Positions 3,499-63,207 of a stretch of 64,000 bases of DNA are shown here, piece by piece. The notes under the pieces were generated by a model, which did not search any database, was not told the origin of the DNA, and saw nothing but the letters and a program-made list of their open reading frames with translations. The position numbers and the translations under genes were made by a program. Numbering within the stretch: position 1 is the stretch's first letter; each line of letters starts with the position of its first letter. Source of the stretch: Octopus vulgaris (lineage: Eukaryota); the NCBI GenBank assembly GCA_951406725.2, contig CATOCA020000001.1:3162001-3226000 (forward strand), given 5' to 3'.

Positions 3499-3570
3499 GG
3501 TTTCCCAAGTCTCAGAACAAGCAAGTCCAGACAGTGGCATTTACTTCAAAAGATGCATCACAGCAAGTTG
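3499..3570 (+). CDS. 72-bp phase 1-1 exon of the + strand gene: (G)FPKSQNKQVQTVAFTSKDASQQV
   Basis: Acceptor tatttatttcag, donor G|gtgagt, open frame; same splice context as the 51-bp exons downstream. Confidence 0.75.
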
Positions 3571-4318: not shown

Positions 4319-5175
4319 ACATACATCTATATCTACATACATATACATATATACATTCACACACACATAAATATGTGTGTGTGTGTGCGTGTGTGCGTGT
4401 GTGCGTGTGTGCGTGTGTGTATGTGCTTGTGTGTTTGTGTGTGTACAGATAATGAGTTTCTATACAAGAGTACAGTGTTTTGGGATACCTGATATCATTT
4501 TCTGCTCCACTTGCTTAGGACAAACATTGTTCACCTGAAATTAGCTGCTTATTAAGGAGGATTAATGACATTGAAATATCTTCAAATGTTTCCAGAATCA
4601 TATCCTATTCTGATGAATTGGGATGTGGGGATTTAAGATTAAAGATTACCAGCAGCAACCTTTTAAAAAGAGAGCAGGTGTATATTAATCCTACTTGATG
4701 TATTGTGACATGCGTTTATGGTTAGATGTTTGGAGACCAGCTTCATTGACATCAGAATTAGAAGAGGAGAAGAATGTTGATTAGAGAAATCTGCAGGTGA
4801 TAAGATAATGCCAAATCATTGATAGGGCTCCGACTGATGAAAAGGGCAAATTAATCTAGGTGATTATCAGTGTTTTCAAATGAAAATTAAAGAAGGTAAT
4901 GATTAGATTATATAGATGTCTTAATAGGGTTATTGTTAGATTATGTAGGATGCCATAATTGGGATATATAGGAAGGTGAGTCTATTTAGTTGTGGACCTG
5001 GATATTGAGCTATTACATGGTATTACTGTAGAAAGTATGAAAATGTTGACCCGAGCAGTACTGGTCACCAGCTGACCAGCAACGACAGGAATACCTAACA
5101 AGAATAAAATTTTGATTATTAAGAAATATAAAGATGTTTTTCTATGAAGTGTAAAATTTAGAATATTTATTTCAG

Positions 5176-5226
5176 AGACGCCAGCACTTGTTGACAATGA
5201 AGTTCAAACAGAAGTAGGACCAGTTG
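5176..5226 (+). CDS. 51-bp microexon copy 1: ETPALVDNEVQTEVGPV
   Basis: ttcag|AG ACG CCA ... CCA GTT G|gtgagt; symmetric phase 1, no stop. Confidence 0.8.
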
Positions 5227-13176: not shown

Positions 13177-14142
13177 CCTTCTATATAATAAATTCATTTA
13201 CTCTGCTATGTATTGAGTACCTTATTTACTGTGGTTAACCCCGACTCAACCCGGGACCTACATATATATATATATATAAATATATACACATATATATATA
13301 TATATCAACATACATCTATATATACATATACATATATACATTCACACACACATAAATATGTGTGTGTGTGCGTGTGTGCCTGTGTGTATGTGCTTGTGTG
13401 TTTGTGTGTGTACAGATAATGAGTTTCTATACAAGAGTACAGTGTTTTGGGATACCTGATATCACTTTACGCTCCACTTGCTTAGGACAAACATTGTTCA
13501 CCTGAAAATAGCTGCTTATTAAGGAGGATTAATGACATTGAAATATCTTCAAATGTTTCCAGAATCATATCCTATTCTGATGAATTGTGATGTGGGGATT
13601 TAAGATTAAAGATTACCAGCAGCAACCTTTTAAAAAGAGAGCAGGTGCATATTAATCCTACTTGATGTATTGTGACATGCGTTTATGGTTAGATGTTTGG
13701 AGTCCAGCTTCATTGACGTCAGAATTAGAAGAGGAGAAGAATGTTGATTAGAGAAATCTGCAGGAGATAAGATAATGCCAAATCATTGATAGGGTTCCGA
13801 CTGATGAAAGGGCAAATTAATCTAGGTGATTATCAGTGTTTTCAAATGAAAAATTAAAGAAGGTAATGATTAGATTATATAGATGTCTTAATAGGGTTAT
13901 TGTTAGATTATGTAGGATGCCATAATTGGGATATATAGGAAGGTGAGTCTATTTAGTTGTGGACCTGGATATTGAGCGATTACATGGTATTACTGTAGAA
14001 AATATGAAAATGTCGACCCGAGCAGTACTGGTCACCAGCTGACCAGCAACGACAGGAATACCTCACAAGAATAAAATTTTGATTATTAAGAAATATAAAG
14101 ATGTTTTTCTATGAAGTGTAAAATTTAGAATATTTATTTCAG

Positions 14143-14193
14143 AGACGCCAGCACTTGTTGACAATGAAGTTCAAACAGAAGTAGAACCAGTTG
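14143..14193 (+). CDS. 51-bp microexon copy 2: ETPALVDNEVQTEVEPV
   Basis: Intact AG/GT sites, phase 1-1. Confidence 0.8.
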
Positions 14194-18181: not shown

Positions 18182-18527
18182 GTGAGTATAAATCAACATT
18201 ACCTTTTTGAGTTCTATCAAGTTTGCCATTACATCATCTACTTTATTAAGGAGGATACGTGAGAAGTAAATGAGATACGTAAGATGTCTTAATTGAGAGC
18301 GGAGATTTAGGAATGCCAATCAATTTTGTGGAGGGCATCAATAATGGGCCCACTATCCGAAGTAGAGATGAGTAGCATATTGGAACCTGCATTAAGGAAA
18401 TATAGGAAAATAATCCCTAAAATTTGGTTCGTAATTTCCCCCCTGGCGTACAGCATGCTTCTAAAACCCCAAGATTCCGAGTTTGATTTCAGGCAGTGAC
18501 GTGAATGATAATGATGATGATGATGAA

Positions 18528-18595
<68 letters not shown>

Positions 18596-18623
18596 TAATA
18601 ATAATAATAATAATAATAATAAT

Positions 18624-20511
18624 CATAAAATTCATAGAGCACTCTATGAATAAATGGCAAACAGTCCTACACCTCCAAACAAAAGAGGGACTCATGAAAA
18701 CCAAAGACATCCCCATTAGAAGAGGAATATTCCAGGGAGACACGCTCTCTCCACTCCTTTTCTGCTTGGCACTGTCACCTCTATCTGATATGCTAAATAG
18801 AACTGGATGCGGATATAAATGTTACGGCAAAACGATCAGCCACCTTTTATATATGGATGACCTAAAACTATACGCTGCAAATGACAAACAGCTGGAAACA
18901 CTATTAAAGACAGTTCATGGATTTACCAAAGAAATAGATATGAAATTTGGATTAGAAAAATGCGCCAAAGTAACCATGAAAAGAGGAAAACTAGTTAAGA
19001 GTAACAACATCACACTAGATAAAACCAATGAAATAAAAGAATTAGACCAAAGCCAAACTTACAAATACTTAGGAATCCATGAACTAGATAAGACACAACA
19101 CACACAAATGAAAGAGAAAATAAAAAAAGAATATTATAGACGAGTTAGATCAATACTAAACACAGAGCTCAATGCTAAAAACAAGATAATAGGTATCAAC
19201 ACTTTAGCTGTCCCAGTTATAAGTTACAGCTACAATATCCTTAACTGGACACGAAATGAACTGACCAAAATAGATAGGAAAACAAGAAAAATAATGACAG
19301 GATCTAGGATGCATCACCCAAAATCTGACATATAAAGACTATATATACAACGTATGGAAGGTGGTAGAGGCCTTATACAGCTGGAAAACTACTATAAAAT
19401 AACCACCATAGGACTGCAAAAATATCTACTTCAGAAGGAAGGAAAACTGATCCAGATAGCGGCAAAACACGAGCAAAACAAAAAACTGTTCTCAGTATTT
19501 AAGGAAGCTGACAAATACAAACAAGAAATCATACCACCTAATAAACATGAAGAAGAAGAAGAAGATGAAGAAACAACAAAAGCTATAAAACAAATGAAAT
19601 CCAAACTAAAAACAGAACAGCAACGAACCATGATAAAACGATGGCAAGAAAAGCCCCTTCATGGTAAATACTGCACTAAACTAAACGCAAAAGAAATAGA
19701 CAAAGAAAAATCCCAGCAATGGTTGAGAAGCTCAGGACTCAAAGCAGAAACAGAGGGATTTTTAATTGCAGCACAAGACCAAAGCCTCCCCACCAGAAAT
19801 TACCAAAAACATGTAATGAAAAGAAATATTACAAGTAACTGCAGAATATGTGGAGATGGACAAGAAACAATAAATCATATTATCTCTAGCTGCCCAGTCC
19901 TGGCTAAGAAGGAATATATTCACAGACATGACAGAGTTGGAACCTACATACATTGGAAGCTATGCCAACATTATGGAATAACAACAGAAAAAAGATGGTA
20001 TAGGCACACACCAGAAAAGGTCACAGAAAACGAGAAAGCAACCATACTCTGGGATATGCCGATACACACAGATAGAGAAATTAAGGCCAACAGACCAGAT
20101 ATAGTTGTCAGAGATCATGAAGAAAAAAATGCTTTTTAATTGATGTATCAATACCGGCAGATGACAACGTGTCTCTAAAAGAAATGGAGAAACTCTCAAA
20201 ATACAAAGACCTGGAAATAGAGGTAACTAGAATGTGGAATCTGAAAACAGAAACAATTCCTATCATAGTAGGTGCATTAGGCATGATAAAAAAATATTCA
20301 GACAAATACATAACAAAAACACCAGGACTTACAAACACATATAACATACAGAAAATTGCACTACTAGGCACTGCCCACATCCTACGCAGAACACTTTCCA
20401 TACAATAACCATCAGAGCATCACAACAAATCACAGCACATACCCAAGGCACACAGAGCTGCGCTCGGTAGTGAAGTGAAAGCACGCTATAAAAATAAAAA
20501 TAAAACTACTG
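18624..20511 (+). mobile_element. 5'-truncated R4/Dong-clade non-LTR retrotransposon (RT, CCHC, RLE) in (AAT)n
   Basis: GIFQGDTLSP, LLYMDDLK, CRICGDGQETINHIISSC, RPDIV...IDVSIP...EKLSKYKDL. In-frame TAA at 19333-19335 and an A-run frameshift at ~20130. (AAT)n on both sides. Confidence 0.9.
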
Positions 20512-24283: not shown

Positions 24284-24691
24284 AAAGGGGCTGATAGCTA
24301 CCTAACTCAGATACCAGGAAAGCCAAAAATGGCAGAAGTTCAAAAGATAGTGCTCATGGGAACTGCTCATATCCTACGCAAAATACTCTCTATGTAATCC
24401 CAAGGTTTAAAACAAACTTTTTTTTATTTATTTACTTTTTTTTATGTATTAGACATTCACTAGTACAACACAAATCTCAAGGTTTAAAACAAACATAATT
24501 TTCGGTTTAAAAAAAAAAAAAAAAAACTTTTTTTTTCTTTTTAGACATTCATTAGTACAACATCCCCACCCCCCAAATATATGGCACACTAGGCATAACA
24601 ACAACATGAACTTCCAACCCTGTTGTCTCTTGAGGTCTCTGGGTGAGACTTGGAGCCAACTTGTACAAATATAAAGCAAAAGTCAAACATA

Positions 24692-24692
<1 letters not shown>
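24284..24692 (+). mobile_element. Very short 3' end of a second R4/Dong family in (AAT)n
   Basis: KGADSYLTQIPGKPKMAEVQKIVLMGTAHILRKILSM* plus a 3' UTR, flanked by (AAT)n. Confidence 0.85.
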
Positions 24693-24762
<70 letters not shown>

Positions 24763-27107
24763 GTTCAGCTGCTCAATGGAATTATGAGAGACCCAAAGAA
24801 AACACCTGAATGTTTAGCACGTGGCATTACTTACCTACTCCCAAAGAATAACGAAACCAACCTTCCAAAAAACTATAGGCCTATAACCTGTCTATCCACC
24901 ACGTATAAAATCCTAACATCTATCCTGGCGGAGAAAACATATGCATTCATGGAGAAGAACGATATTCTCCCCATTGAACAAAAAGGCTCTTACGGATGCA
25001 AAGATCAACTGCTAATCAATCGTATGATCCTTGAGAACTGTCACAAGCGCAGAAAGCTCAGCACCGCATGGATTGACTATAAAAAGGCCTTCGACAGTAT
25101 ACCGCATCCATTGATCTTGAAATCGCTGGACATCTTCAAAATTTCCCCTGTGATTTCAAACTTCCTGAAGCACAATATGTCGTTGTGGAATACGAATCTC
25201 CAATTATACCACTCTAATGGAGTACTTGCCTCAGAAAATATAAACATCAACTGTGGAATTTTTCAAGGTGACTCACTTTCACCTTTAATATTCTGCATAG
25301 CCCTAATACCACTTACAAGTGAATTAAACAGAACAGGGTATGGGTATAAAATTGCCAATAAAAAAATAAGCCATCTATTTTATATGGATGACTTAAAACT
25401 TTATGGTAAAGACAATAATGAACTTGAAGGCCTATTGCACACCGTGAAAGCATTCAGCGATGACATCGGGATGGAGTTTGGACTTGAGAAGTGTGCCAAG
25501 GCCACTTTCCAGAAAGGTAAAGTGAAGACCACAAATTCAGTCGTGTTAGATGTTGACACAGTCATGAGAGAGCTTGAGCAAGAACAAACATACAAATATT
25601 TAGGGATAAATGAAGGCTCTGGTATTCAGCATGCAAGCATGAAAGAAAAAATCAGGAAGGAATGTTATAGGAGAGTTCGTGCAGTCCTGAAATCTGAACT
25701 AAATGCACGTAACAAGGAGTTAGCTATAAATTCCTTAGCAGTTCCAGTTGTTACTTATAGCTACAATGTGTTGAACTGGAATATGAGTGAAGTAAAGAAT
25801 ATAGATAGAAAAATATGCAAGCTGCTGAGTTGTAATAGGATGCACCACCCAAAGGCAGACGTAGATCGCCTTTACCTTCCCAGAGCCCAAGAAGGTCGAG
25901 GCCTGATCCAATTTGAACTAGCTTACAAAACAACCACAATTGGACTGGCCAAATATCTCGAAATATCGAATGACTGGATGCTAAAGCTCGTGGAAAATCA
26001 CGAGAGACGAAAGAAGCTTCATTCTATCATAAAGGAAAGCAAAAAATTTGCTATTGATCTCGTGCAGGATACCCAAACTGAACAACCCGAGGGAAGTAGG
26101 GCAACTATTGTTGTAAAGAAGGTAAAAATGATGCCAATGAAGAAAGCGCACGAGCAATTGGCTGATAGGTGGGAGGAGAAACCTCTGCACGGCAAATATG
26201 TGACCCGCAGCAAACAAGCTGATGTTGACCAGAAGCAAACCCATCAGTGGCTACGGAGCTCAGGGCTAAAAGCAGAGAGCGAAGGTTTCATCCTGGCTGC
26301 TCAAGATCAAAGCCTATTAACCCGGAACTACCAGGCCAATGTGATGAAAAATGGAGCAGACCCAAAATGCCGATTCTGCAACGACATGATTGAAACAGTG
26401 GACCACCTAATCTCTGGATGTAAAGTCTTAGCACCAGTGGAGTATAAATTAAGACATGACAGAGTTGGCCAATATCTCCACTGGCTAATAAGTCGGCATT
26501 ACAATATCAAAACTGCCGACAAGTGGTATAATCACCACCCTGAGGCTGTAACTGAAGGAGAAAATGTAACCATTCTGTGGGACTTTCCAGTACATACAGA
26601 CCGACCCATCAAGGCCAATAAACCAGATATTGTTGTGAAAGACCAAAACAATAAAGTTTGCTTATTGATCGACATGAGCATCCCCTGTGATCATAATATC
26701 TCAGCGAAAGAGTTTGACAAGCTCAGAAAATATAAAGACCTGCTCATTGAAATTGAGAAAATGTGGCATCTCAAGGCGGTTACAATACCAGTGATCGTAG
26801 GAGCACTAGGAATGATCAAGAAGGGAACCGAAAATTATATGAGAATGATCCCTGGCTTACCAACCCTGCAAGAAGTGCAAAAGATTGTCTTAACTGGTAC
26901 ATCACACGTATTGAGAAGAGCATTGTCGATGTGAGAACTGTTGCTGCTCATGTATTTTAATTTAACTTAAAAAAAAAAAAAAAGAATAAACAAACTACTG
27001 AGTTTGGTTTAATGGCTTACCAATGTATACTATGAGTTTCTTTGCCCTAGGAGTCGGGAAGACACTCGGCAAGAAATGGAAGAGAATTTGAAAGAAGAAA
27101 AAAAAAG
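24763..27107 (+). mobile_element. 5'-truncated R4/Dong retrotransposon, third family; ORF open to 26934
   Basis: NYRPITCL, WIDYKKAFDS, GIFQGDSLSP, FYMDDLK, CRFCNDMIETVDHLISGC, KPDIV..LIDMSIP..KLRKYKDL; A-rich tail followed by (TAA)n. Confidence 0.92.
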
Positions 27108-30211: not shown

Positions 30212-30262
30212 AGACGCCAGCACTTGTTGACAATGAAGTTCAAACAGAAGTAGAACCAGTTG
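30212..30262 (+). CDS. 51-bp microexon copy 5: ETPALVDNEVQTEVEPV
   Basis: Intact AG/GT sites, phase 1-1. Confidence 0.8.
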
Positions 30263-30571
30263 GTGAGTATAAATCAACATTACCTTTTTGACTTCTATCA
30301 AGTTTGCCATTACCTCATCTACTTTATTAAGGAGGATACGTGAGAAGTAAATGAGATATGTAAGATGTCTTAATTGAGAGCGGAGATTTAGGAATGCCAA
30401 TCAATTTTGTGGAGGGCATAAATAATGGGCCCACTGTTGAAAGTATATAAATATTGACCGAAACCTGTGCGAACTCTTGTAGACCATTGATGGTAGGGAT
30501 CTCTCACAATAACAGAATATAGATTATTGATAATGATAAAAAGACTTTAGTGTAAATAATATTTATTTCAG

Positions 30572-30625
30572 AGAATCTAAAGCTTGAAGGGAAATAAGTG
30601 CAGACGATGGTAGCAGAGCCAGTTG
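30572..30625 (+). pseudogene. Dead paralogous microexon ENLKLEGK*VQTMVAEPV
   Basis: Acceptor tatttatttcag intact, in-frame TAA, donor mutated to G|ctaagt. Confidence 0.7.
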
Positions 30626-31427
30626 CTAAGTATAAAATAACAGCAGCCCACAAATGTCTATTTTGCCTTTGTTTCTATGGCTGCCTCATGTGTCGATAGA
30701 GAAAATGGTGAAATACGACAGAGAGTGATCTGGGAGGGAGGGTTAGTTTATAAGTTTGTGAAAGGAAGGTAGTAGAGGAAGGAGGAATGGTGGATATGGT
30801 TGGGGATGAGAAACAGTAGGGCATCATATGTGCATGTAGGTACATGAGGGAGAATGGAGGAGAATGCGACATGTGTGGGGGAGGCATTGTTGGGGGACAA
30901 ACATGCGCTTATGACCTTGATTTTATTTAGGTTGGTGGTTGTTCTCAAGCACAGAAAACTGCCAAGTGACTGTTAGGCTCAACATTTCAAGATCATTACT
31001 CACCATTTCGTCCCATTCTTCCTGGGTATTCATTAGGGAAATCTGGAGGTGAGAGAACAATGCCATATCGTAGATTGGGCTCCGATAGATGGAAGGGAAA
31101 ATTAAACTAAGAGATAATCCGTGTTATCAAGTGATAATTATATAAGATAATTATTAGATTATGTAGATATCTTAATAGAGTGATTCTTAGATTATGTGGG
31201 ATGTCTTAATAGGGAGATATATGAAGGTTAGTCTATTTAGTTGTGGGCCTGAATATTGAGCTATTACATGGTATCCCTATAGAAAGTATGAAAATGTTGA
31301 CCCAAGCCGTACGGGTCACCAGTTGACCATCAAGGACAGGAATGTCACAGAATAACAAAATTTTGATTAATAATTAAGATAAAGACATTTTTCTGTAAAG
31401 TGTAAAATTTAGAAAATTTTGTTTCAG

Positions 31428-31478
31428 TTACTTTAACGCTTGTTGACAATGAAGTCCAAACAGAGGTGGAGCCAGTTG
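31428..31478 (+). CDS. Older paralogous 51-bp microexon: VTLTLVDNEVQTEVEPV
   Basis: gtttcag|TT ACT ... GTT G|gtgagt. Synonymous differences (GTC, GAG GTG GAG) keep LVDNEVQTEVEPV while the flanking intron has diverged. Confidence 0.8.
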
Positions 31479-32007
31479 GTGAGTATAAATTACCAATACC
31501 TTATTGATTCCTATCAATTTTACCATTATCCGAGCAACTTTGTTTGACAGAATGACTGAGAACAAGTTCTTTTGCTACATTTATTTCGAATGGTTAGCTA
31601 CACATTTTTTTTTCGATTCTTGTACAACTACAGGAATATCCAAGAAATGGATTTTATAGAAAAGTGGAAGCATCAGATATTCTTCCACTCAGAAAAAAAG
31701 GCGTCTCAAGATAAGGAGAAATATGCAAAAGATAAAATATAAACCCTTAAGCGGTTCTGTCCCTTTAAGGAGAATAAATACCGTCTGTCATCTCAATTTA
31801 GTCTCTCTCGTCCTCTCCCTTTTTCGCTCTCTTCCACTCCCTTTGTATACAACAAGCAGCAGCTCCTCTCGTTCCCAGTCAAGTAACCACATCAATTTGT
31901 TTTTTAAAATATTGTTATTATTGAAATTTAATAAAATGTCCACCAAGGTTATCGCTGTTGGCAAAATGGCTAAATTAGAAAACAGAATAGAGTTAATATT
32001 GTCCTTT

Positions 32008-32225
32008 GGGAAGGTGGTGAGCTGGCAGAAACATTAGAACGCTGGGCGAAATGCTTAGCTTTACTTCATCTGTCTTTACATCCTAAGTTCAAATTCCACC
32101 GAGGTCGATTTTGCCTTCCATCCTTTCGAGGCCGATAAATTGAGTACCAGTTGCGTACTGGGGTCGATCTAATCGACTGACTCCGTCGCCAAAAGATTCT
32201 GGCCTTGTGCCTAGAGTAGAAAATG
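32008..32225 (+). mobile_element. tRNA-derived SINE
   Basis: A/B-box-like head (gagctggcagaa...gttcaaattcc) and a 12-bp TSD atattgtccttt (31996-32007, 32226-32237); same family inverted at 56031-56217. Confidence 0.8.
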
Positions 32226-34681
32226 ATATTGTCCTTTAGAATAGGAACTAAAAGGATTTTGTTGTTTAAAGGTAAACGGGTGATTTAATGACAAAGTGTT
32301 TGTTCGTTTTACATTTTTAGTAAGCTTACTGATTGATTATTGTTGTTGGTGCTTTTGCTTAACCAGATGTTATGGTGAAACTTGTTCCAATAGTGAACAG
32401 CCTGGTTTTTTTTCACTGTCATTACGTCCACTATTCAACCATTACATCTATTCAATATTGCCTTTATTCAAGTAGAAGGCTGCTTTGCAGCTCAGACAAG
32501 CTCTCTCTCTGTCTTTCTTTTTCTCTCTCTATTTCTCTCTCTCTCTTTCTCGCTCCCTTTCACTATCTGCAAGTTTCAATACAGTAAATGATATCATCCT
32601 CTCCCTTTTATCATCTGCTCTCTATGCTCCCATGTACTGGATGGGTGGTCACTGTCCATGTCATAACAGTAAACTACCCATAATGATTGCTTGAGGATTA
32701 CCTCTCAATTAACCATTCCAGCTTTTTCATGGTGGTATGCCCTTCTTATCACCAACCACTTTACAAAGGGTCCTGGGTGAATATAATTGTGGCACAAACA
32801 CTACAAGAGATTGCCATGTCCTCGGCAAGATTAAACCTCCCTCTCAACCTTACGGTGTCAATTCTCATCCAACAACCACCTCCTAGTGTGTAGAGGGAGC
32901 ATTTGATCATAGCACCAGCATTAGTGAGGTTGTGTCACATTCCAAGTTATTAGAAAGTTAGTCCTCACTACTCTATGATGTGTTTGTTCACTGATATGTT
33001 TAAGATGGGAGAAGAAGAGATTATAGAAGAATCGGAATGCAAAGACTAAAAGATACGAGACAATAAGGATAAAAAAAGTGATTCGAAGGAGCGGTGGAGG
33101 GTGACAACAGTAAATGATGGAGACTGAGTTACAACGGTGTGTGAGGTACCAGAGTGCTTAATTATTTATTAACATTCCTTGGTTGCTCACTCTCACTGTT
33201 TCTCTTGCCCTCCTCCTCTCACTGGGTAATCATGTATGTCTTCTACTATAGGACACCTGTTTCAATCCCTCTGTCACAGTCGAACCTGTCATCCTCTGAC
33301 ACACGACCACCTCCTCCTCCAATGCTCTCCCTCTCAAAGGTTTTTTGTCTTGCAAGTTCTTTGGTGACCCCTACCAGTGCTTGTGGATCCAGATCCCACT
33401 GTAAGGTTGTTGGTGTTGGGAAGAGTATCCAGCTGTAAAATCCTGCCAAATCAGACAGTGATGCCTGGTGCATTCTTCTCCCTAGCCAGCCCCTGACAAA
33501 ACGTACAAACCCTGCCAGAATGGGGAACCGACGTTCAATGATGATAGTGGTAGTGATGGTAGGTAGCGATGGATACTAATTACTTGCAAATACATCAAAG
33601 TTATACATGTTAAATTAGGAGAGAGACTGACCAAATCTCAACTGAGATAATGGATAATTACAGGTTTCTGGATTGCCATAAATACTAGTAATTACTATCA
33701 CATGGGTAATTACAGGTTTATATATTTCTGTGAATATTTTCATATATATCTGTATATTTGTAAAACACTAATTAGTATTTTAAATCAGAGCATTTAGAAT
33801 TAGCCCAGCATTAAGGAAGTGGAGTGCAGAAAGTTATTGACTATAAATTATCAATAATTATTCGTTATCTCTAAATCGGTAAAAGGCAATTTCTGTTTTG
33901 TTTATTCGAATTTTATTTACCTCATTCATTCATAGAATTGGTGTTGGGGCTAATCTAATTTTTAACATCTAACATGAGGTCAGGGAGAGAGAGAGAGAGA
34001 GAGAGAGAAGAGAAAGAGAGAGAGAGAAAGAAAGAGAGAAGGAGAAAGAGAGAGAGAGAAAGAGATCATAAATCTTAGGATTGGTCGTGTAATAGCTACT
34101 CAGGCCATATTTAGTACTCACATACATACACACACATATATATAACAATACGCAGCTGGTCACAGCCTCTGTAAAAAACACCCAGATCTAACCCGTCAAA
34201 TATTCCATTCTTTCATCTTGTTAAACATCACAGAGTTAACTTACAAAATACAGTGTTTTGTTTTGAGGGGTGGAGTGTGGTAGCAGTCGGGATGCAATAA
34301 ATTATTTCCTCATTGTACAGTATGTGGTTGTACATGTGTAGACCTTCTAGTATTAACCACAATTGAAGTGGTCAAGGTATACATAGCCAGATCATCATGG
34401 ATATCGCTCTTCAGTAACAAACTCCGCTGGTGTATATCAGTGTTTTCAGCTTGTAACCCCACTGATGTCGCTATTTCCGTGTTTATCTACAATAAATGAA
34501 ATGGAAAGTGTCTTGAAAATGGTGTGGTAGGAATGTTGTCCAATATTTTCGTTAAATTGAGAAGATTTGATTTTTTTTGTGACTCGAATTGCGTAGGAAG
34601 TTGCTGTTACAAATTAATATTACCCATTCATGTCTTTTGAAAATTTAATATAATTTTATTTCTGTTGTTATTGTTATTCAG

Positions 34682-37503
34682 ATGATCACTACATGCAGAT
34701 ACCACGTTTTGACTGTAAAAGTATTATGAAGTCGCATTCATCCAAATTCCGTCCCCTTTGCCCAGCTGTGTCCAAAATATTGCAGCTCACAGATTCCGAT
34801 AATGATTCCAAGAACTTGGTCACAGTTTCAAGAATCGTTGAAATCTGCAATGGAATAGTAACCTATTCACCAGATTTGAAGTTAATAAGTTGTGCCACAA
34901 CAGGCGGTGATTTTGATTTTCATTGTTCTTCTAATGTCACAGACATGACAAGAATTGGTGAACACACTGTTCTAGCCACAATTCCTTTCCGCAAGAAAAT
35001 AGTTTTCATTAATCCATCAAGTTTCCACATAAAATCTCTGGATTATAGTTTCTTTACAATTTCTTATTTCGAACATTCTACATTTGTAGGGACTGAAATG
35101 TTTAGTAAGACAATATATCTCATAGACTGGGATAAAAATAAATTTGAAGAAAAATTTAGTGTGCAAGAAATTGTTGGAAACATAGCAGTTGGTCCACAGT
35201 ATCATATCTTAATAGCCTTAGCTAATATAAATAGAATTAGCTGTTACACAATAGATGGCAGACACTTGTTTCAGTTGAGGACACATTCCATCGATATTCC
35301 AACCGACCTCACCGTATATCGAAATTATTCTTACGCTCTGCAAGGAAATGTAATTTACAAGATTTCAGCAAACGGTGCTGTGTCCCAAAGAGAAATTGGG
35401 ATAAAAGCTCGATATATTTGTGTGGCAACAAATAATATTTACTTGACTGACCGTTTTGGTCTTGCACATATTATTAGGACAAATAAAGATGTTTGGCCTC
35501 GGCTGTCTTACCATCACCAAGACCATGTCCCGAGCCTGATAAACCAAATCCATATTGATGACCCCTCCAACATTACAACGATTCTACCTATGTCAGCCTC
35601 TTCAGTAGTAATTATATATCGGGATCTAAAAGCTATATTAGTTACTGACGAAGGGCAACCGTTTGGTGGAAAATGTTTAACCTTTAAACTCCAGCCTTCT
35701 GTTTTCTGCAGAGTGGATTCGAACACATTTCTTGTCCTTTTTAGTGAGGACAGGTAACTTCAGTATATTACCTGTCCACAACTAACTGAAGGTGATTTAA
35801 TAGACGTCGAAAACAATTACATTCAAATGTGTCATATGGTATCAAAAAGGTGTTTGGCTCTGACCACCAATGAAGGTAAAGTGGAGGTACATATTTTATT
35901 GATTAAAAAGGATCATGTCGACATTGTAAACAGAATTTCATTGGAACATGACAATGTCGCCATTGCTGCTACTCCAATTAATTTTGTAGTTGTAGACAGA
36001 AAGAAACGTAACTTGTTATTTTATTCAAGCTTTGGTGAGGAGCTTTCCAAGAAAAACATTGAGTTCAATGGCTATCCTCATCATGTTTTCACAGACAAAT
36101 TATACTTCTATGTTATCTTCAGGAGAGAGTCTTTGATGACTTGTTACAATATAACTGGACAAAGGAAATGGCAGTTGAAACTTCCTTCAAACTTTCTCTG
36201 TCACGCTGCTGTTTTCCAAGGAACAGCTTATGTGCTGGACGATCTGCTCAGTCGGATTCTTCTTTACAAGTACCATGACTGGTCAGACTGTCATGTAACC
36301 TTTCAAAATCCTTATAATAAAAATCTAAATATTCGACTCGAAGAAAAGGAGAATGACCAAGTTCTCATTGGTGAAATATGTCATCTGGCAAATGGACAGT
36401 TGGTGTTGTCCGACATATATAATGATTGTTTGTTATACATTTCCAACGAAGGGAACATTGTGTCTAGATTATCTCTGCCGTCTACAGCTACAGATGTATG
36501 TCGATGGAATTATAATCAGATAGGCGTCACATTACCTCTAGAGAAGCAATTACGGGTCTTCGGAAACGTATCAAAGGCAGTTATAAGTGTAGCATTAAAC
36601 CAGGCTTATGTACGGGTGTGTAAGCTGGGTGAAAGTCATATTATTTGTTATTGCGATAAACCATCGCATTTAGATATTTTAAACATTAAAAATTGTAATC
36701 AAGTTAAAATAATTCATAAAATTAATATTCCTTTTGTAATGAAATAATTATCGTTAGAAAATGAAACACTAAAGCTATTGATTGTTGGTAAGAAAGCAGT
36801 ATTCTTCTACAAGATCATCAGGAAGAGGGGAAGAAGTGTTTTACCATCCGAAGTGAAAACACCCTCCAATCTCTATGGTTATGACGGTGGTCCTTATAGC
36901 ATTGAGATGATACCCAATATTTTACTGTCGCAAGGGAAAACACAATCCAATCTCTATAGTGGACGTATTGATAAAATGTGTGTTCATTTGATAGACAACA
37001 GCCGCATGTTTGCTGTAAATGAGCATGACTTGCTGGTGAAAGATCATGTCACAAGAAGCCAAATTAACATGTTCATCGATCTAGTAGATGTATTTTCTAG
37101 AAACATCAGTCTCAGTGAAATGTTGTCTTCTAGATTGTATCTACAAGATCTCACTGTTTCTGATAAAGCTCATGAAGTTGTTGTCCCTCAAAGTTTTGGA
37201 GATAGACATCCAGTGGAGATTGGTTGTTTGGTTATTACAGAAAATAACCTGGTTGCTTTATATGACAGCACAAATGAAAACATTAAGATATTAACTTTTG
37301 ATGGTCAACTTGTTGACTCTATCAAGTTAAATGTTGTCCCTAGACATATGTGTTGCTGGCGATCAAACACATTGGTTATAACGACCAATAACTATCAACT
37401 TCTGACATTAAAAGTGGAATTCCCATTGGTCTTGGCAACTTACCACACGGAAAATCGATACAATTGTATCGCTTGTCGATCCGACAATCTACTGGTGTGT
37501 AGC

Positions 37504-37574
<71 letters not shown>

Positions 37575-39532
37575 CAGTAATGTTGGTGGTGGTACCTACA
37601 TACCCGAAATTGAAAACGGCCTGTTTTATATATATATCGATGAAATACAGTCAGCTGTCCGTATTATGAGAGAAATAGACTTATTTTGGATGTGCTACAG
37701 ATATAATATCACCCATATCTCAGTTATTGCTAATGACAACATCATCGTCAATACCGAGAGGCTCATCACTATTCTGAACCCGAACGGGCAATATTTATAT
37801 TCATTTAAGCACAGTATTTATTCCCGACCCATTTCTATGGCAACCAATGATACTTATTTGTACATTACTGGACGGAAGAACATCTATGAAAACACGAAAA
37901 AGTATCGTATTGTCTCATTGTTGCAGAACGGTGAATACAAGAGAATATTCTTAAATGAAAGACATTATAAACGTCCGTTGGATTTCAACAGTATTAACTG
38001 TAAAGGCCCGAGAATTGTTGCAAACTATGACTCGTACTTATATATTGAAGGTTTGTACAAGATTAATCGGGAAAAATTCCCCCGTTTCACGGTTACAAAC
38101 AAACAATTTTCCTGTTCAAGTAAAAGATATCGATATCTCTGATGAAGGAAAGACAGCTGTGTGCGAAATGGCCAATAGTGGAAATGTTAAACTATTTGAT
38201 GAAGACGGGAAGTTGCTATGTTACAGAGATTTTGGAAGTTTTGTTGGTGGTGTATGTTTTACAGGAGAAAGAAATATCTTGGTCACAGTCCCTAACAGAC
38301 AAGAAATATTTCAACTGAAGTCACAAAACTTGGAGAAATATAAAGTTTGGGAAAGTCGAGTACCTTATGGTATAATATGGAGAAAAGTGGGAAATATTTA
38401 CTGGTGTGTACATATCAACATGATTGAATGTGATACTATAAAAATTGATGGGGACCAACTGAAGGTTCTGGAATCTATGTCGTTATCGAATATTGATTTT
38501 GGCCTTCACTTCCCTTCCATTACATCTAAGAAGAACAAGGGAATGTTCAGTAATGAATTATTTAACAAACTTAAAAACGGTGGCGATGGAGGAGAAAGAA
38601 GTACATCAAGGAAAATAGAAGTAAGACGTGGTAATTACATAGCGGAAAGTATGTTAGGAATTGATGAAATATCAGTGAGAAGACTGCCACATAGAACAGC
38701 AATGTTCCCGCTTTCATTTTCTCTATCTGGTTTACTAGATTCAAATTCGATGTTTTGTTTTCTTAATGCTTTTAAGCTAATTATGTTACAAGACAATAGT
38801 ATCGTCGTGCTCCTCTATAAATGTACTCTCATGGTCACCAGTGGAGACGGTCATCTGCTTTACAGTCAAACATTTGAAAAAGAAGCTCAAGATATATGTC
38901 AATGGACCGATGAATCATTTGTAGTCCTCTTTCGTGACGATAAACAACTGATTTTCTTCGATACAGATTTGTGTCTTTTAAAAAAGATCACAACTGAAAA
39001 ACCATACAATTTAATGTACAAAAAGAACGCCAATAATCTGGTATGTGTGTTTGAAGACGCTCCAAATGAATGTAGTAATATTCCATATGTGACATACGCA
39101 GACATACTTCACATTGGCGGTGAAATGTACGAGTATAAGGGCCGAGTGAATTTAGGGAAGGAGGGGAAGGTTGTAGCAATGGGTGTGACATCGAATGAAG
39201 ACATCGTCGTTCTTAAGTACAAGGAAGATCATTACGATGTATGTTGGTACAGAGACAATTGGGTAAGAAGTCAACAACTAATGATTCAAGGTGAGGAACC
39301 ATTTCCAAACATTTTCAACAAATCCTTGACCATCCACGGCGAAAATATTTACATATCAGATTTTAATAACAATATCCACCAAGTATCTGTAGACAGCAAA
39401 TGCGAAATCTTTCTCAGCTCTCAGGAAATTGAAGTCTGCCACATCAAGGCCATACATGTTTCGGATTATTTCATCATGATTTACGGAAATTTGGACAACC
39501 GTTTTGATGGATTATTTTATTATGAGAGATAA
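34682..39532 (+). pseudogene. Single 4.85-kb terminal exon encoding ~6 tandem NHL-like beta-propeller domains (disrupted)
   Basis: Acceptor gttattcag at 34681; phase 1 puts it in frame with ORF 34693. ORFs 34693, 35827 and 36778 share a frame and are separated by single TAA codons; +1 frameshift in a C-run at ~38078-38082. Repeated blades such as IGEICHLANGQLVLSD...ATDVCRWNYNQIGVTLP and VKDIDISDEGKTAVCE...VGGVCFTGERNILVTVP. Confidence 0.8.
37501..37578 (+). repeat. In-frame (AGT)n microsatellite encoding poly-Ser
   Basis: About 26 consecutive Ser codons inside ORF 36778-38142. Confidence 0.95.
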
Positions 39533-48629: not shown

Positions 48630-51290
48630 CAATTTAAGAAGCATTTATTCAAAGAATCCTCCTACACCTGGTTTGACATCATGCTAGAAATAACAGCCCA
48701 CTACACTCAAAGTTGCTTTGTTTTTCATACGAAATTGAAAGACAATTTAAGAAGCATTTATAAAACTTTATCCCGGATCTGGTCAGACTTCTTCCTCGAA
48801 TGAGAAACCAAGTGAAGAAGCGTCTATAAAACGTATTGGTGGTCTGTTATCTTGCTAGAAATAACAGCCCACTACACTCAAAGTTGCTTTGTTTTTCATA
48901 CGAAATTGAAAGACAATTTAAGAAGCATTTATAAAACTTTATCCCGGATCTGGTCAGACTTCTTCCTCGAATGAGAAACCAAGTGAAGAAGCGTCTATAA
49001 AACGTATTGGTGGTCTGGCGTCTTGCTAGAAATAACAGCCCACTACATTCAAAGTTGCTTTGTTTTTCATACGAAATTGAAAGACAATTTAAGAAGCATT
49101 TATAAAACTTTATCCCGGATCTGGTCAGACTTCTTCTTCGAATGAGAAACCAAGTGAAGAAGCGTCTATAAAACGTATTGGTGGTCTGTTATCTTGCTAG
49201 AAATAACAGCCCACTACACTCAAAGTTGCTTTGTTTTTCATACGAAATTGAAAGACAATTTAAGAAGCATTTATAAAACTTTATCCCGGATCTGGTCAGA
49301 CTTCTTCCTCGAAGGAGAGACCAAGTGAAGAAGCGTCTATAAAACGTATTGGTGGTCTGTTATCTTGCTAGAAATAACAGCCCACTACACTCAAAGTTGC
49401 TTTGTTTTTTATACGAAATTGAAAGACAATTTAAGAAGCATTTATAAAACTTTATCCCGGATCTGGTCAGACTTCTTCCTCGAATGAGAAACCAAGTGAA
49501 GAAGCGTCTATAAAACGTATTAGTGGTCTGGCGTCTTGCTAGAAATAACAGCCCACTACACTCAAAGTTGCTTTGTTTTTCATACGAAATTGAAAGACAA
49601 TTTAAGAAGCATTTATAAAACTTTTCCCGGATCTGGTCAGACTTCTTCCACGAAGGAGAAACCAAGTGAAGAAGCGTCTATAAAACGTATTGGTGGTCTG
49701 CTATCTTGCTAGAAAAAGTCAGCCCACTACACTCAAAGTTGCTTTGTTTTTCATACGAAATTGAAAGACAATTTAAGAAGCATTTATAAAACTTTTTCCC
49801 GGATCTGATCAGACTTCTTCCTCGAATGATAAACCAAGTGAAGAAGCGTCTATAAAACGTACTGGTGGTCTGTTATCTTGCTAGAAATAACAGCCCACTA
49901 CACTCAAAGTTGCTTTGTTTTTCATACGAAATTGAAAGACAATTTAAGAAGCATTTATAAAACTTTATCCCGGATCTGCTCAGACTTCTTCCTCGAAAGA
50001 GAAACCAAGTGAAGAAGCGTCTATAAAACGTATTGGTGGTCTGGCGTCTTGCTAGAAATAACAGCCCACTACACTCAAATTTGCTTTGTTTTTCATACGA
50101 AATTGAAGGACAATTTAAGAAGCATTTATAAAACTTTTTCCCGGATCTGGTCAGACTTCTTCCTCGAATGAGAAACCAAGTGAAGAAGCGTCTATAAAAC
50201 GTATTGGTGGTCTGTTATCGTGCTAGAAATAACAGCCCACTACACTCAAAGTTGCTTTGTTTTTCATACGAAATTGAAAGACAATTTAAGAAGCATTTAT
50301 AAAACTTTTTCCCGGATCTGGTCAGACTTCTTCCTCGAAGGAGAAACCAAGTGAAGAAGCGTCTATAAAACGTGTTGGTGGTCTGTTATCTTGCTAGAAA
50401 TAACAGCCCACTACACTCAAAGTTGCTTTGTTTTTCATACGAAATTGAAAGACAATTTAAGAAGCATTTATAAAACTTTTCCCGGATCTGGTCAGACTTC
50501 TTCCTCGAATGAGAAACCAAGTGAAGAAGCGTCTATAAAACGTATTGGTGGTCTGTTACCTTGCTAGAAATAACAGCCCACTACACTCAAAGTTGCTTTG
50601 TTTTTCATACGAAATTGAAAGACAATTTAAGAAGCATTTATAAAACTTTTTCCCGGATCTGGTCAGACTTCTTCCTCGAATGAGAAACCAAGTGAAGAAG
50701 CGTCTATAAAACGTATTGGTGGTCTGTTACTTGCTAGAAATAACAGCCCACTACACTCAAATTTGCTTTGTTTTTCATACGAAATTGAAAGACAATTTAA
50801 GAAGCATTTATAAAACTTTTTCCCGGATCTGGTCAGACTTCTTCCTCGAATGAGAAACCAAGTGAAGAAGCGTCTATAAAACGTATTGGTGGTCTGTTAT
50901 CTTGCTAGAAATAACAGCCCACTACACTCAAAGTTGCTTTGTTTTTCATACGAAATTGAAAGACAATTTAAGAAGCATTTATAAAACTTTTTCCCGGATC
51001 TGGTCAGACTTCTTCCTCGAAGGAGAAACCAAGTGAAGAAGCGTCTATAAAACGTATTGGTGGTCAGTTATCTTGCTAGAAATAACTGCTCACTGCACTC
51101 AAACTTGCTTTGTTTTTATACGAAATTGAAAGACAATTTAAGAAGCATTTATAAAACTTTTTCCCGGATCTGGTCAGACTTCTTCCTCGAATGAGAAACC
51201 AAGTGAAGAAGCGTCTATAAAACGTATTGGTGGTCTGTTATCTTGTTAGAAATAACAGCCCACTACGCTATACTTTACATCGTTTTTATG
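48630..51290. repeat. 171-bp satellite, 15 full monomers
   Basis: tgctagaaataacagccc recurs (a few copies with minor variants) at 48682, 48853, 49024, 49195, 49366, 49537, 49707, 49879, 50050, 50221, 50392, 50562, 50732, 50903, 51074 and 51244. Confidence 0.97.
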
Positions 51291-51419
51291 AAGGACACTT
51301 TAAGGAGCTTCTAAGGAAATATAATCCAATTGGGGTTCAAATGTGATGCTAGAAATAACAGCCAAGTATGTTAAAGTTTGGTTTTGTGTTTCATATGAAA
51401 ATGAAGGACACTTCGAAAC

Positions 51420-60767: not shown

Positions 60768-60973
60768 TCACCGTTCATCTAATGAGAGATATTCAAGGGC
60801 AGCAAAGCACTCAGCATCTTTAAGGCCTCTTCTGAGGTTCTCAACTGTACGTTCCTCTGGTTTACAATTTATAAACCAATCACAAAGCATTTGATAACTC
60901 TGCTTTACTGTGTCACAAGGGAAAACGTTCTTGATAATATCCTGGTCAATTGCTGGAATTCCTAAAAAAATAC
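60768..60973 (-). pseudogene. Terminal exon encoding the C-terminal part of a death domain
   Basis: tcttttgcag acceptor, phase 1: GIFLGIPAIDQDII...KQSYQMLCDWF...TVENLRRGLKDAECFAALEYL...*. AATAAA on the - strand at 60534-60539. Confidence 0.8.
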
Positions 60974-61016
60974 CTGCAAAAGATACAATAAGAAATAACA
61001 GCAACAGTATTAACAA

Positions 61017-61409
61017 TCTCTCTCTATATAAAGCTGAAGTCGTCTGTGTATGGCAGGTTTGGTAGCCTTCAACTAACATTATCTCCTCTGAGACCCTGAG
61101 GCGCAAGTTGATCAAAATTGAGAATATGATAGAAGAAGCCTTGCTCTTCATTCCGTAGAAGATAAAATTCAAATCAGACCATGTTAAGACCAAAAATTAT
61201 TTACATCAATAGGCTACTTTTTTTCTATGAAAATCCTTATTTTTTAACGATTTTTTTACTGATGTGTCGCCATTGTTCGGTGTATTTCAACCAGAAAAAT
61301 GTTCACTTAAAGAGAATAACAAGCTATATAATGCTAAAATTTTACTTTTCAAAAATTCCAGTTCTAAATGGTCAAAACAAACCTGAGCAACGCCGGGCGA
61401 TACTGCTAG
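61017..61409 (+). mobile_element. Non-autonomous Helitron-like element
   Basis: 5' TC, 3' CTAG, A|T target; 3' 29 bp identical to the 40034 element. Confidence 0.75.
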
Positions 61410-61915
61410 TGTTATAGTAAAAGTCTTTATCTTTATTAACAATCTAAATTTTATTATTGAGAGACATTCCTAACATGAATGGTCAACCAGCAATCACAAT
61501 GGCTTTGGACAATAATTTTATACTGTCACCATTTAGCGTTTAAACCGGCCATATCCGGCCCAAATATTCTATATGTTTTATATCCAAACTGGCAATATTA
61601 AGCCTCTCATACCAAACCTAAATTGACATTCTAAAAATAAACAATCGCAGCATTGAAACCTCAAAGATATAAGATAATGCATGATTAATTCAAAACAATT
61701 TGAATAAAAAAATATTACATTTAACAGAGTAATCTGAACACTAAAGGATTCAACAATATTTAGATCCAAAACAAACATTTGATTGATCTTCGTAAATGTC
61801 CTCTATTAAGACATCTTACATAATCTAACAATGTTGCAATTATATCACTTAATTATCACTTAATTACAGTTTCTCTCTAAGTTTTGTTTACTTTGCTTAT
61901 ATCTGTGCCAAATCA

Positions 61916-62243
61916 TGTGAAGGCGCATGGCTCAGTGGTTAGAGCGTTGAGCTTATGATTGTGAGGTTGTGAGTTCGAATCCCGGACCGGGCTGCGTGTT
62001 GTGTTCTTGAGCAAGATACTTTATTTCACGTTGCTCCAGTTCACTCAGCTGTAACAAAAGCTAGGTCAAGCTGTATCGGCGCCTTTTCCCTCCCCATGGA
62101 TAACACTGGTGGCGTGGAGAGAGGAGGCCTGGGCGACTGCTGACTTCCATAATCAACTTTGTCCGGACTTGTGTCTGGGAGAGTAACTTTCTAGGTTCAA
62201 TCTCATGGACAGTCATGACTGAAGGGATCGCTCTCTTTCCATA
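61916..62243 (+). mobile_element. tRNA-derived SINE
   Basis: Head ggcgcatggctcagtggttagagcg...gttcgaatccc (A and B boxes); TSD tgccaaatc. Confidence 0.8.
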
Positions 62244-62499
62244 TGCCAAATCTATTACATGGCATTGTTCTCAAGACTAATCTTCACTAACAATCTGCTT
62301 AATTCCAATGTCAGACAAGTTATTCATCAAAGATCTAGTAACAAACAAATGTCACAACCACTTCAAGAAGGATAAACATACACCTAATCTCTTTGTTAAA
62401 CATTGTTGCTGATAATATTTAATTTTACATTTTATTCTACACAATAAGGGCAATGAGACAAGCAGGACAAACAGACAGATCATCAAAGAGCATTCTTAC

Positions 62500-62639
62500 C
62501 AACTCGACTTCTGCTTGTTACAGGTTTTAAACACCTCAGACATCATTTCAGTGGAACGTTTGAACATTCTTCACATGTCACAAGGTGTCCACAGGGATGA
62601 ACTTTTGTTGTGGCTGCTTTATTTCTGCACCACAATCAT
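62500..62639 (-). pseudogene. RING-finger exon, Mind bomb (MIB)-like, with two TGA stops
   Basis: ttgcacag|A...G|gtaag: *LWCRNKAATTKVHPCGHLVTCEECSNVPLK*CLRCLKPVTSRSRV; C3HC4 pattern with the first Cys lost to TGA. Confidence 0.85.
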
Positions 62640-63074
62640 CTGTGCAAAGAAATACAAACATATCTAATCAATAACATTCATTTATAAGAAATATGACATT
62701 GTGTACGTGTTTACAGAAGAGAATATTATGAAAGACTTCAGTGACAATCAAGAGCACATCAGAAATTCTTTAAACCATTACATATTGGCAGATTTGTGTG
62801 TAGCTAAATAGTCCATGCACACACACACACACACACGTACATAAAATTTGGGGTGCCAGTGAGGTACCTCTGTCAATAGAACCCATTATGTGAATGTAAT
62901 TGAAACAGTGTTCTTTCTTTGACCACCCAACAACTATAATTGTTGTTTTGTGCTACCTTTCATCAAAACACTAGCAACAGTTTTATTTATTGTTAGAATT
63001 TAAACGAAACACACATATAAACATGATTATTATATACAAAATAGTTTATCTTGTCATTGCCAGGAAATACTTAC

Positions 63075-63207
63075 TGTGGCGGTAAAAATGTTTGTAATTT
63101 TGTTTTCAAATTTGGGTTTTTAATGAGGTACAATGGCTGGCGAGATATCTGGTAACCACAAGGCCAGAGAACCTTTCGTCTTTGCTCAAGCTGAGCTCAG
63201 TGCAGCA
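63075..63207 (-). pseudogene. Post-ankyrin exon of the MIB-like pseudogene (internal deletion/frameshift)
   Basis: tttgtag|CCTELSLSKDERFSGLVVTRYLASH / LIKNPNLKTKLQTFLPP-CA|gtaagt; the phase-2 donor matches the RING exon. Resembles the MIB ..A.YLA..GAD....N...TPLDL..DP.L...L segment with its middle deleted. Confidence 0.7.

Follow-up and report, generated by a model that had tools for sequence, protein, structure and literature searches.

The 64,000-nucleotide (nt) stretch of the Octopus vulgaris genome (2.8 Gb) analyzed here, C31:3,162,001-3,226,000 (the window; positions are numbered from 1), carries two convergent genes. The plus-strand gene ends in a large exon encoding tandem beta-propellers, and the minus-strand gene is a pseudogene with RING and death-domain exons. 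We conclude, with a probability of roughly 0.78, that both are broken members of a family of about 100 genes in which an ankyrin-RING front has been joined to exchanged tails, and that the intact members likely function as mix-and-match intracellular adaptors. An earlier note on this DNA had placed both genes in one expanded ankyrin-RING-linker-X family, X being a death domain or a propeller array, and had predicted ankyrin and RING exons upstream of the window for the plus-strand gene. Such exons were found 9–25 kb upstream: ankyrin exons at about -25.4, -24.7, -19.6, -14.0, and -12.2 kb, followed at -9.3 kb by a RING exon that is intact, its C3HC4 zinc ligands included (the Pfam zf-C3HC4_3 match, E 1.4e-6, exceeds the cut-off). 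The genome yielded, as lower bounds, at least 116 matches to the last ankyrin-region ('pre-RING') exon, at least 31 close matches to the RING exon, and at least 132 matches to the second death exon. After exclusion of 13 tandem rows on C1, 103 pre-RING exons were labelled by what follows them: a death exon in 84 cases, a propeller in 4, and neither within 60 kb in 15. Both the common membership of the two genes and the nature of X were thus borne out. Eleven of the 15 tailless fronts were fetched (10–30 kb each), of which two had death exons, two belonged to canonical MIB loci, and seven were without a recognized tail. A third type of tail was sought among them, and no new module was present in any of the 11.

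The claim that the C-terminal modules are swappable was upheld by the occurrence of like tails behind unlike fronts. A propeller exon is located behind a RING exon at four genes, the window's and those at C28:8.16 Mb, C31:4.68 Mb, and C31:10.51 Mb. These four propeller exons are 98.7–99.6% identical in DNA and the flanking linker DNA about 95–99%; the RING exons of the same genes are only 55.7–73.6% identical to one another, and each is 95.8–98.6% identical to that of a death-tailed gene. In a tree of 30 RING exons (the C29:16347 locus, whose RING exon sequence was not in hand, was excluded), a single propeller clade was rejected by the approximately unbiased test (p-AU 2.35e-54), and four changes are needed. 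A corresponding pattern was observed for the death tails at 25 loci (300 pairs), with tails assigned to fronts by position. Death exons were less than 80% identical in 34 of the 46 pairs with RING identity of ≥90%, and RINGs were less than 75% identical in 16 of the 29 pairs with death identity of ≥90%; as these loci were picked partly to include likely mosaics, the fractions are not genome-wide rates. The fronts are mosaic as well, with pre-RING exons that are 91.5% alike preceding RING exons only 59% alike. As judged by these comparisons, fronts and tails have been re-paired repeatedly within the family. The mosaics might alternatively be assembly chimeras between near-identical tandem units, as linker units are 95–99% identical between loci and assembly gaps occur within or adjoining family loci. 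However, the tails are 96–99% alike rather than identical and reside on three contigs, each with its own differences, and the window locus is without any undetermined base (N) from the first ankyrin exon found through the propeller. In addition, gene models of O. sinensis, which come from another assembly, display the same scrambling, with RINGs that are 95% identical preceding unlike death domains (48% in death exon 1). We therefore consider assembly chimeras an improbable cause.

The two genes of the window were also found to share intron sequence. According to the earlier note, the intron behind the minus-strand RING exon is collinear and co-oriented with the introns preceding the linker ('QT') exons of the plus-strand gene. 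Matches at 74–80% were obtained in three blocks, all on the minus strand. In block 1 (62300–62430), 62430–62300 matches 4631–4760 (74%, E 1e-16), with further copies at 13598, 17587, 23232, and 29667. In block 2 (61754–61914), 61832–61754 matches 4932–5007 (75%). In block 3 (61412–61531), which is acceptor-proximal in the paralogues and whose following exon is missing in the minus-strand gene, 61471–61414 matches 5087–5145 (80%) and 61531–61420 matches 30435–30548 (75%). The local-alignment scores of blocks 1, 2, and 3 (88, 51, and 54) were far above the maxima obtained from 500 shuffles per block (36, 33, and 28). Collinearity was thus confirmed for the three blocks and not for the stretch between blocks 2 and 3, as 61528–61750 is an inserted dispersed repeat with 3,697 first-look candidates in the genome. 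It swamped the search with 61400–61940, in which 35 of the 40 scored matches cover only that part. The one block searched by itself across the genome was block 1, for which the best 40 of 77 candidates were scored. Of these, 36 follow an ankyrin or RING exon of the family at a distance of at most 30 kb, and the remaining four precede a family death exon by 2–9 kb. With 40 of 40 scored matches at family-type loci, a dispersed-repeat origin was rejected for block 1. That the shared sequence is a dispersed repeat residing in unrelated genes, the objection raised in the note itself, is therefore very improbable, even though one such repeat separates blocks 2 and 3 and three block-1 matches on C2 are without an upstream ankyrin exon (46, 39, and about 9 kb searched). 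No block match was obtained in the MIB2 locus or in four native propeller loci. The shared intron alone demonstrates paralogy only.

On C2, at 151.94, 152.04, and 152.48 Mb, three death-domain tails with a tandem death exon 1 follow the same intron and come after a tandem array of roughly 2 kb that contains acidic-looking pieces. Neither ankyrin nor RING exons were found upstream of these tails (39–46 kb searched for two), and this death-domain tail may serve a different front.

All eight linker exons of the window are 51, 54, or 72 nt in length and in phase 1-1. They comprise a 72-nt exon at 3499–3570, a 51-nt exon at 5176–5226 with tandem copies at 14143, 18131, 23777, and 30212, a dead exon at 30572–30625 with a stop codon and a CT donor, and the last one at 31428–31478 (all plus strand). 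A profile of the last 150 bases of the intron, seeded only with linker introns of the plus-strand gene, also found the intron before death exon 1 of death-tailed genes, so that one intron end precedes both kinds of exon. Among 51 distinct exons behind the shared intron, 25 resemble death exon 1 above shuffles (p<0.01). A graded series includes one gene on C8 in which death exon 1 has three near-copies of 72 nt, and one locus on C2 with a tandem death exon 1. By its end profile, the shared intron is the one in front of death exon 1, multiplied in the plus-strand gene, and the linker exons probably arose as tandem copies of death exon 1 that then decayed. Accordingly, the minus-strand pseudogene would retain the intron formerly in front of its death exon 1, and the plus-strand gene would have multiplied that intron, which explains the sharing. 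In the proposed sequence of events, a two-exon death domain followed the front, and its exon 1 together with the upstream intron was tandemly duplicated and decayed into the linkers. Tandem copies of a phase 1-1 exon would leave every intron from the RING to the tail in phase 1. Phase 1 was indeed found, as had been noted, at the end of the RING exon and at the starts of the linker exons, the death exon (60973), and the propeller exon (34682). This phase symmetry permits in-frame tail exchange. Since any junction within phase-1 linker introns keeps the frame, fronts and tails could be re-paired many times, with unequal recombination or deletion within the run of same-phase introns as the likely route. 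The family would thus present exon shuffling caught in progress and with a visible cause, the tandem decay of one symmetric exon into a run of same-phase introns.

The canonical loci on C26 and C13, which by their sequence features we take to be MIB2 and MIB1, respectively, point to the origin of the front. Only one RING per gene was present in the loci annotated, and all 29 family RINGs score higher to RING1 of the C26 locus than to RING2. At the C26 locus, too, the RING1 exon has a phase-1 end, at the position where the family RING exon ends. The front, comprising ankyrins and RING1 and ending in a phase-1 intron, is therefore the duplicated C-terminal half of MIB2, and by this exon comparison the phase-1 end of the family RING exon is inherited from MIB2. 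The octopus family shares with MIB2, of which C26 carries the single octopus locus, homologous ankyrin, pre-RING, and RING1 exons; it differs in lacking MIB_HERC2 and RING2, in having a death domain or a propeller array instead, and in its roughly 100 copies. MIB_HERC2 (PF06701) has 10 matches genome-wide, located upstream of the canonical C26 and C13 loci or elsewhere outside the family clusters and none on C31 or C29, and no MIB_HERC2 Pfam match occurred on the family proteins scanned. A full Pfam Death match over the cut-off was obtained for three family proteins (P0002, P0004, and P0005). The ankyrin-RING-linker-death architecture is already modelled in databases as 'MIB2-like' or 'MIB1-like' (XP_036355466.1, XP_029652129.1, CAJ1099252.1, and CAI9742791.1), and automatic O. 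vulgaris models join a RING to the propeller exon. These models carry labels only. Among the literature listings searched, we found no description of this family, of the propeller family described below, of the tail exchange, of the origin of the linkers, or of the propeller capture; tables of gene families in the supplements of cephalopod genome papers may include both families. In the available text of the cuttlefish genome paper, the RING family mentioned is a decapod one, distinct from that of octopus.

Some loci differ from the common arrangement. At C1:216.93–216.97 and C1:102.71–102.73 Mb, pre-RING and death exons form tandem arrays with a spacing of about 0.5 kb; most of them carry stops, and these arrays were left uncounted. 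A lone ankyrin-RING gene at C20:45.05–45.06 Mb has one long ankyrin exon and no recognized tail in 27 kb, and is possibly an early branch of the family. Convergent RING-linker genes are located at C31:11,337,672 (plus strand) and 11,355,375 (minus strand), and no death or propeller exon was found between them.

The terminal exon of the plus-strand gene (34682–39532) comprises about 1,610 codons that encode NHL-like beta-propellers in tandem. The window copy is broken by stops at 35755 and 36745 and by a 1-nt insertion near 38079. Its intron end and acceptor (34140–34681, plus strand) are specific to propeller-tailed loci, where all 18 matches are located. The first 200 residues of the propeller exon gave 124 matches in the genome, of which those at nine loci are 96–100% identical and the others, on C28 and C27, mostly 35–55%. 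The latter chromosomal sequences harbor a stand-alone family of more than 100 single-frame genes of about 1,800 codons encoding NHL-like propellers, whose named close relatives are all from Octopus or Argonauta. Most full-length relatives have 1,650–1,900 residues, a single open frame in the genome, and an N-terminus of their own of 125–190 residues. The cassette, i.e. the propeller exon with its intron end, starts where this native N-terminus ends, behind an intron end unique to cassette loci. A remnant of the native N-terminus was sought upstream of the acceptor; protein matches were non-significant, and there was no DNA match to five native loci. Because the cassette is rare and truncated at its 5' end, we infer that the propeller was captured into the ankyrin-RING family rather than the reverse. 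A stand-alone multi-propeller gene minus its first 125–190 residues would thus have been captured once as an alternative last exon and would then have spread to at least four unrelated fronts. Two large and apparently undescribed octopus gene families, one of about 100 ankyrin-RING and one of more than 100 multi-propeller genes, are linked in this way.

The predicted structure of the first 800 propeller residues consists almost entirely of beta structure arranged in about three blocks, with a predicted local distance difference test (pLDDT) score of 76 and a predicted template modelling (pTM) score of 0.45; extrapolated from this model, the exon would encode about six propellers. A fold search with the model returned tandem or multi-propeller structures at low TM-scores, and NHL clusters of the Atlas gave a likeness of 0.91 with low recognition. 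No Pfam match over the cut-off, NHL included, was obtained on the propeller. Weak matches to the NHL domains of Brat and TRIM71 occurred (E 0.04–0.25), and the relatives furthest removed are B-box-NHL and RING-B-box proteins (hhalign 95.8%). No B-box or RING match was found in the 15 propeller-family proteins scanned. At 37500–37580, the propeller exon contains an in-frame poly-serine microsatellite, the length of which varies between copies by three-base steps. Two long open reading frames at 18505–20408 and 24634–26934, which by their motifs are presumably non-LTR (long terminal repeat) retrotransposon reverse transcriptase-like, sit inside linker introns, and one of them is common to several cassette copies.

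The joints between linker and propeller exons were seen in four sequence runs from four studies, presumed RNA and assembled into contigs. The GT-AG joint from the last linker exon to the propeller exon (31478 to 34682) occurred in all four runs, as did that from 30262 to 31428, and the joint from 30262 to 34682 occurred in three of four. The same linker-propeller joints are present in O. sinensis gene models. The runs are without the two stops and the frameshift of the window copy. Intron and acceptor are retained in eight of the nine genomic cassette copies; in the remaining one, the acceptor is gone. At 26 letters changed in all four runs, the C28 copy agrees in 26 and the other copies in 22–25, a weak difference given that the copies are >99% alike.

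Several observations weigh against the proposed mix-and-match adaptors. A weak correlation between RING identity and death identity persists (Spearman 0.24), and for 26 of the 51 linker exons the resemblance to death exon 1 is not significant. Shared segments begin and end in linker introns, which had suggested crossing-over inside the shared blocks; of three junctions traced, two lie at repeat insertions and one, just before the acceptor, is without homology, leaving this suggestion unconfirmed. The RING kept by the octopus family is, by its sequence, RING1 of MIB2. Human MIB2 acts on RIPK1 and cFLIP, and in one study ubiquitylation of cFLIP needed RING2, RING1 being dispensable (PMC7815719). 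The C28-type RING has an Asp in place of a His zinc ligand. No RING-to-propeller transcript was observed in the four runs, which are only presumed RNA and are without a DNA control. In the assembly, each of the four propeller exons behind a RING is broken, and the two intact propeller exons are without ankyrin or RING exons in 128 kb and 112 kb upstream, respectively.

The latter findings would also be expected if the tail exchange, though real, were a by-product of an unstable, repeat-rich cluster, the RING-propeller fusions being dead ends and the expressed propeller originating from front-less copies. Several family RING exons carry frameshifts, and the minus-strand pseudogene was copied five times after its RING had died, since the same stop at the first RING Cys codon occurs in all five near-identical copies aligned. 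However, the letters of the runs agree best, if weakly, with the RING-linked C28 copy, whose propeller exon (C28:8157761) is broken only by a single base within a run of A, 168 codons before its end; an assembly gap cuts into the first ankyrin exons of this copy. One of the two intact copies is cut off by an assembly gap, right at which its linker intron starts, and the other is not. The cassette is, moreover, present and spliced in the O. sinensis models. We place such neutral turnover somewhat short of even odds and retain mix-and-match adaptors as the preferred interpretation.

Ankyrins and NHL propellers bind targets, RINGs recruit ubiquitin machinery, and death domains couple to apoptosis and immune signaling. 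In intact family members, target binding would thus fall to the ankyrins and the recruitment of ubiquitin machinery possibly to the RING, with a tail that would either couple to death-domain signaling or add a second binding surface. A role as immune or cell-death sensors is conceivable but somewhat doubtful, and we are similarly tentative about ubiquitin ligase activity of the family RINGs. We think it unlikely that the family in full represents an actively recombining library of intracellular sensors with linkers bred from death exon 1, in which the captured tail of about 1,600 NHL-like residues forms an expressed MIB2-derived RING-NHL ligase. If the products were immune sensors or ligases, the family would be a candidate source of cephalopod receptor diversity. 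Gain or exchange of a terminal module by capture and recombination is likewise known from TRIM5-cyclophilin fusions and shuffled NLR families, in which the recipient is a RING or sensor protein; the domains are unrelated to those described here, and functions have been shown for them, whereas those of the octopus family are predicted. With respect to molluscan TRIM-NHL proteins, the octopus fusion recreates the combination of a RING with an NHL-like domain; it differs in being without a B-box, in a RING derived from MIB2, and in having about six propellers in one exon. The bivalve IAP families, for which new domain architectures are described, likewise represent an expansion within molluscs of proteins that carry RING and death domains in varied arrangements, and IAPs are reported to be least expanded in Octopus; in the available part of that paper, the IAPs are BIR-based rather than ankyrin-based and no symmetric-phase linker array is described (PMC8917759).

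The minus-strand pseudogene is decayed throughout. Its pre-RING exon (63075–63207) has a 43-nt deletion that shifts the frame. The RING exon (62500–62639, phase 2 to phase 1), a homologue of MIB2 RING1, has two stops, a TGA at the first Cys and another at 62545–62543, and its zinc ligands are destroyed. Frameshifts occur in two ankyrin exons and further breaks past the window, where decayed ankyrin exons lie at 65.9 and 70.1 kb. The RING exon runs straight to the terminal death exon 2 (60768–60973, phase-1 start), the linker exons and death exon 1 being absent; at their site lies a repeated element (61021–61425) with a 93% full copy at C31:3234045. The terminal exon had been read as a death domain. 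This identification was correct (Pfam Death, E 7.6e-4), and the exon encodes not a complete domain but only the second of its two exons, scoring 20 bits against a cut-off of 22.6. A second convergent pair resembling that of the window, a RING/death pseudogene and a broken propeller exon, is located at C31:4,290,001–4,370,000, with no ankyrin or RING exon within 48 kb upstream of the propeller. Between the two convergent genes of the window, a tandem array with a 171-bp unit and about 95% identity occupies 48669–51413.
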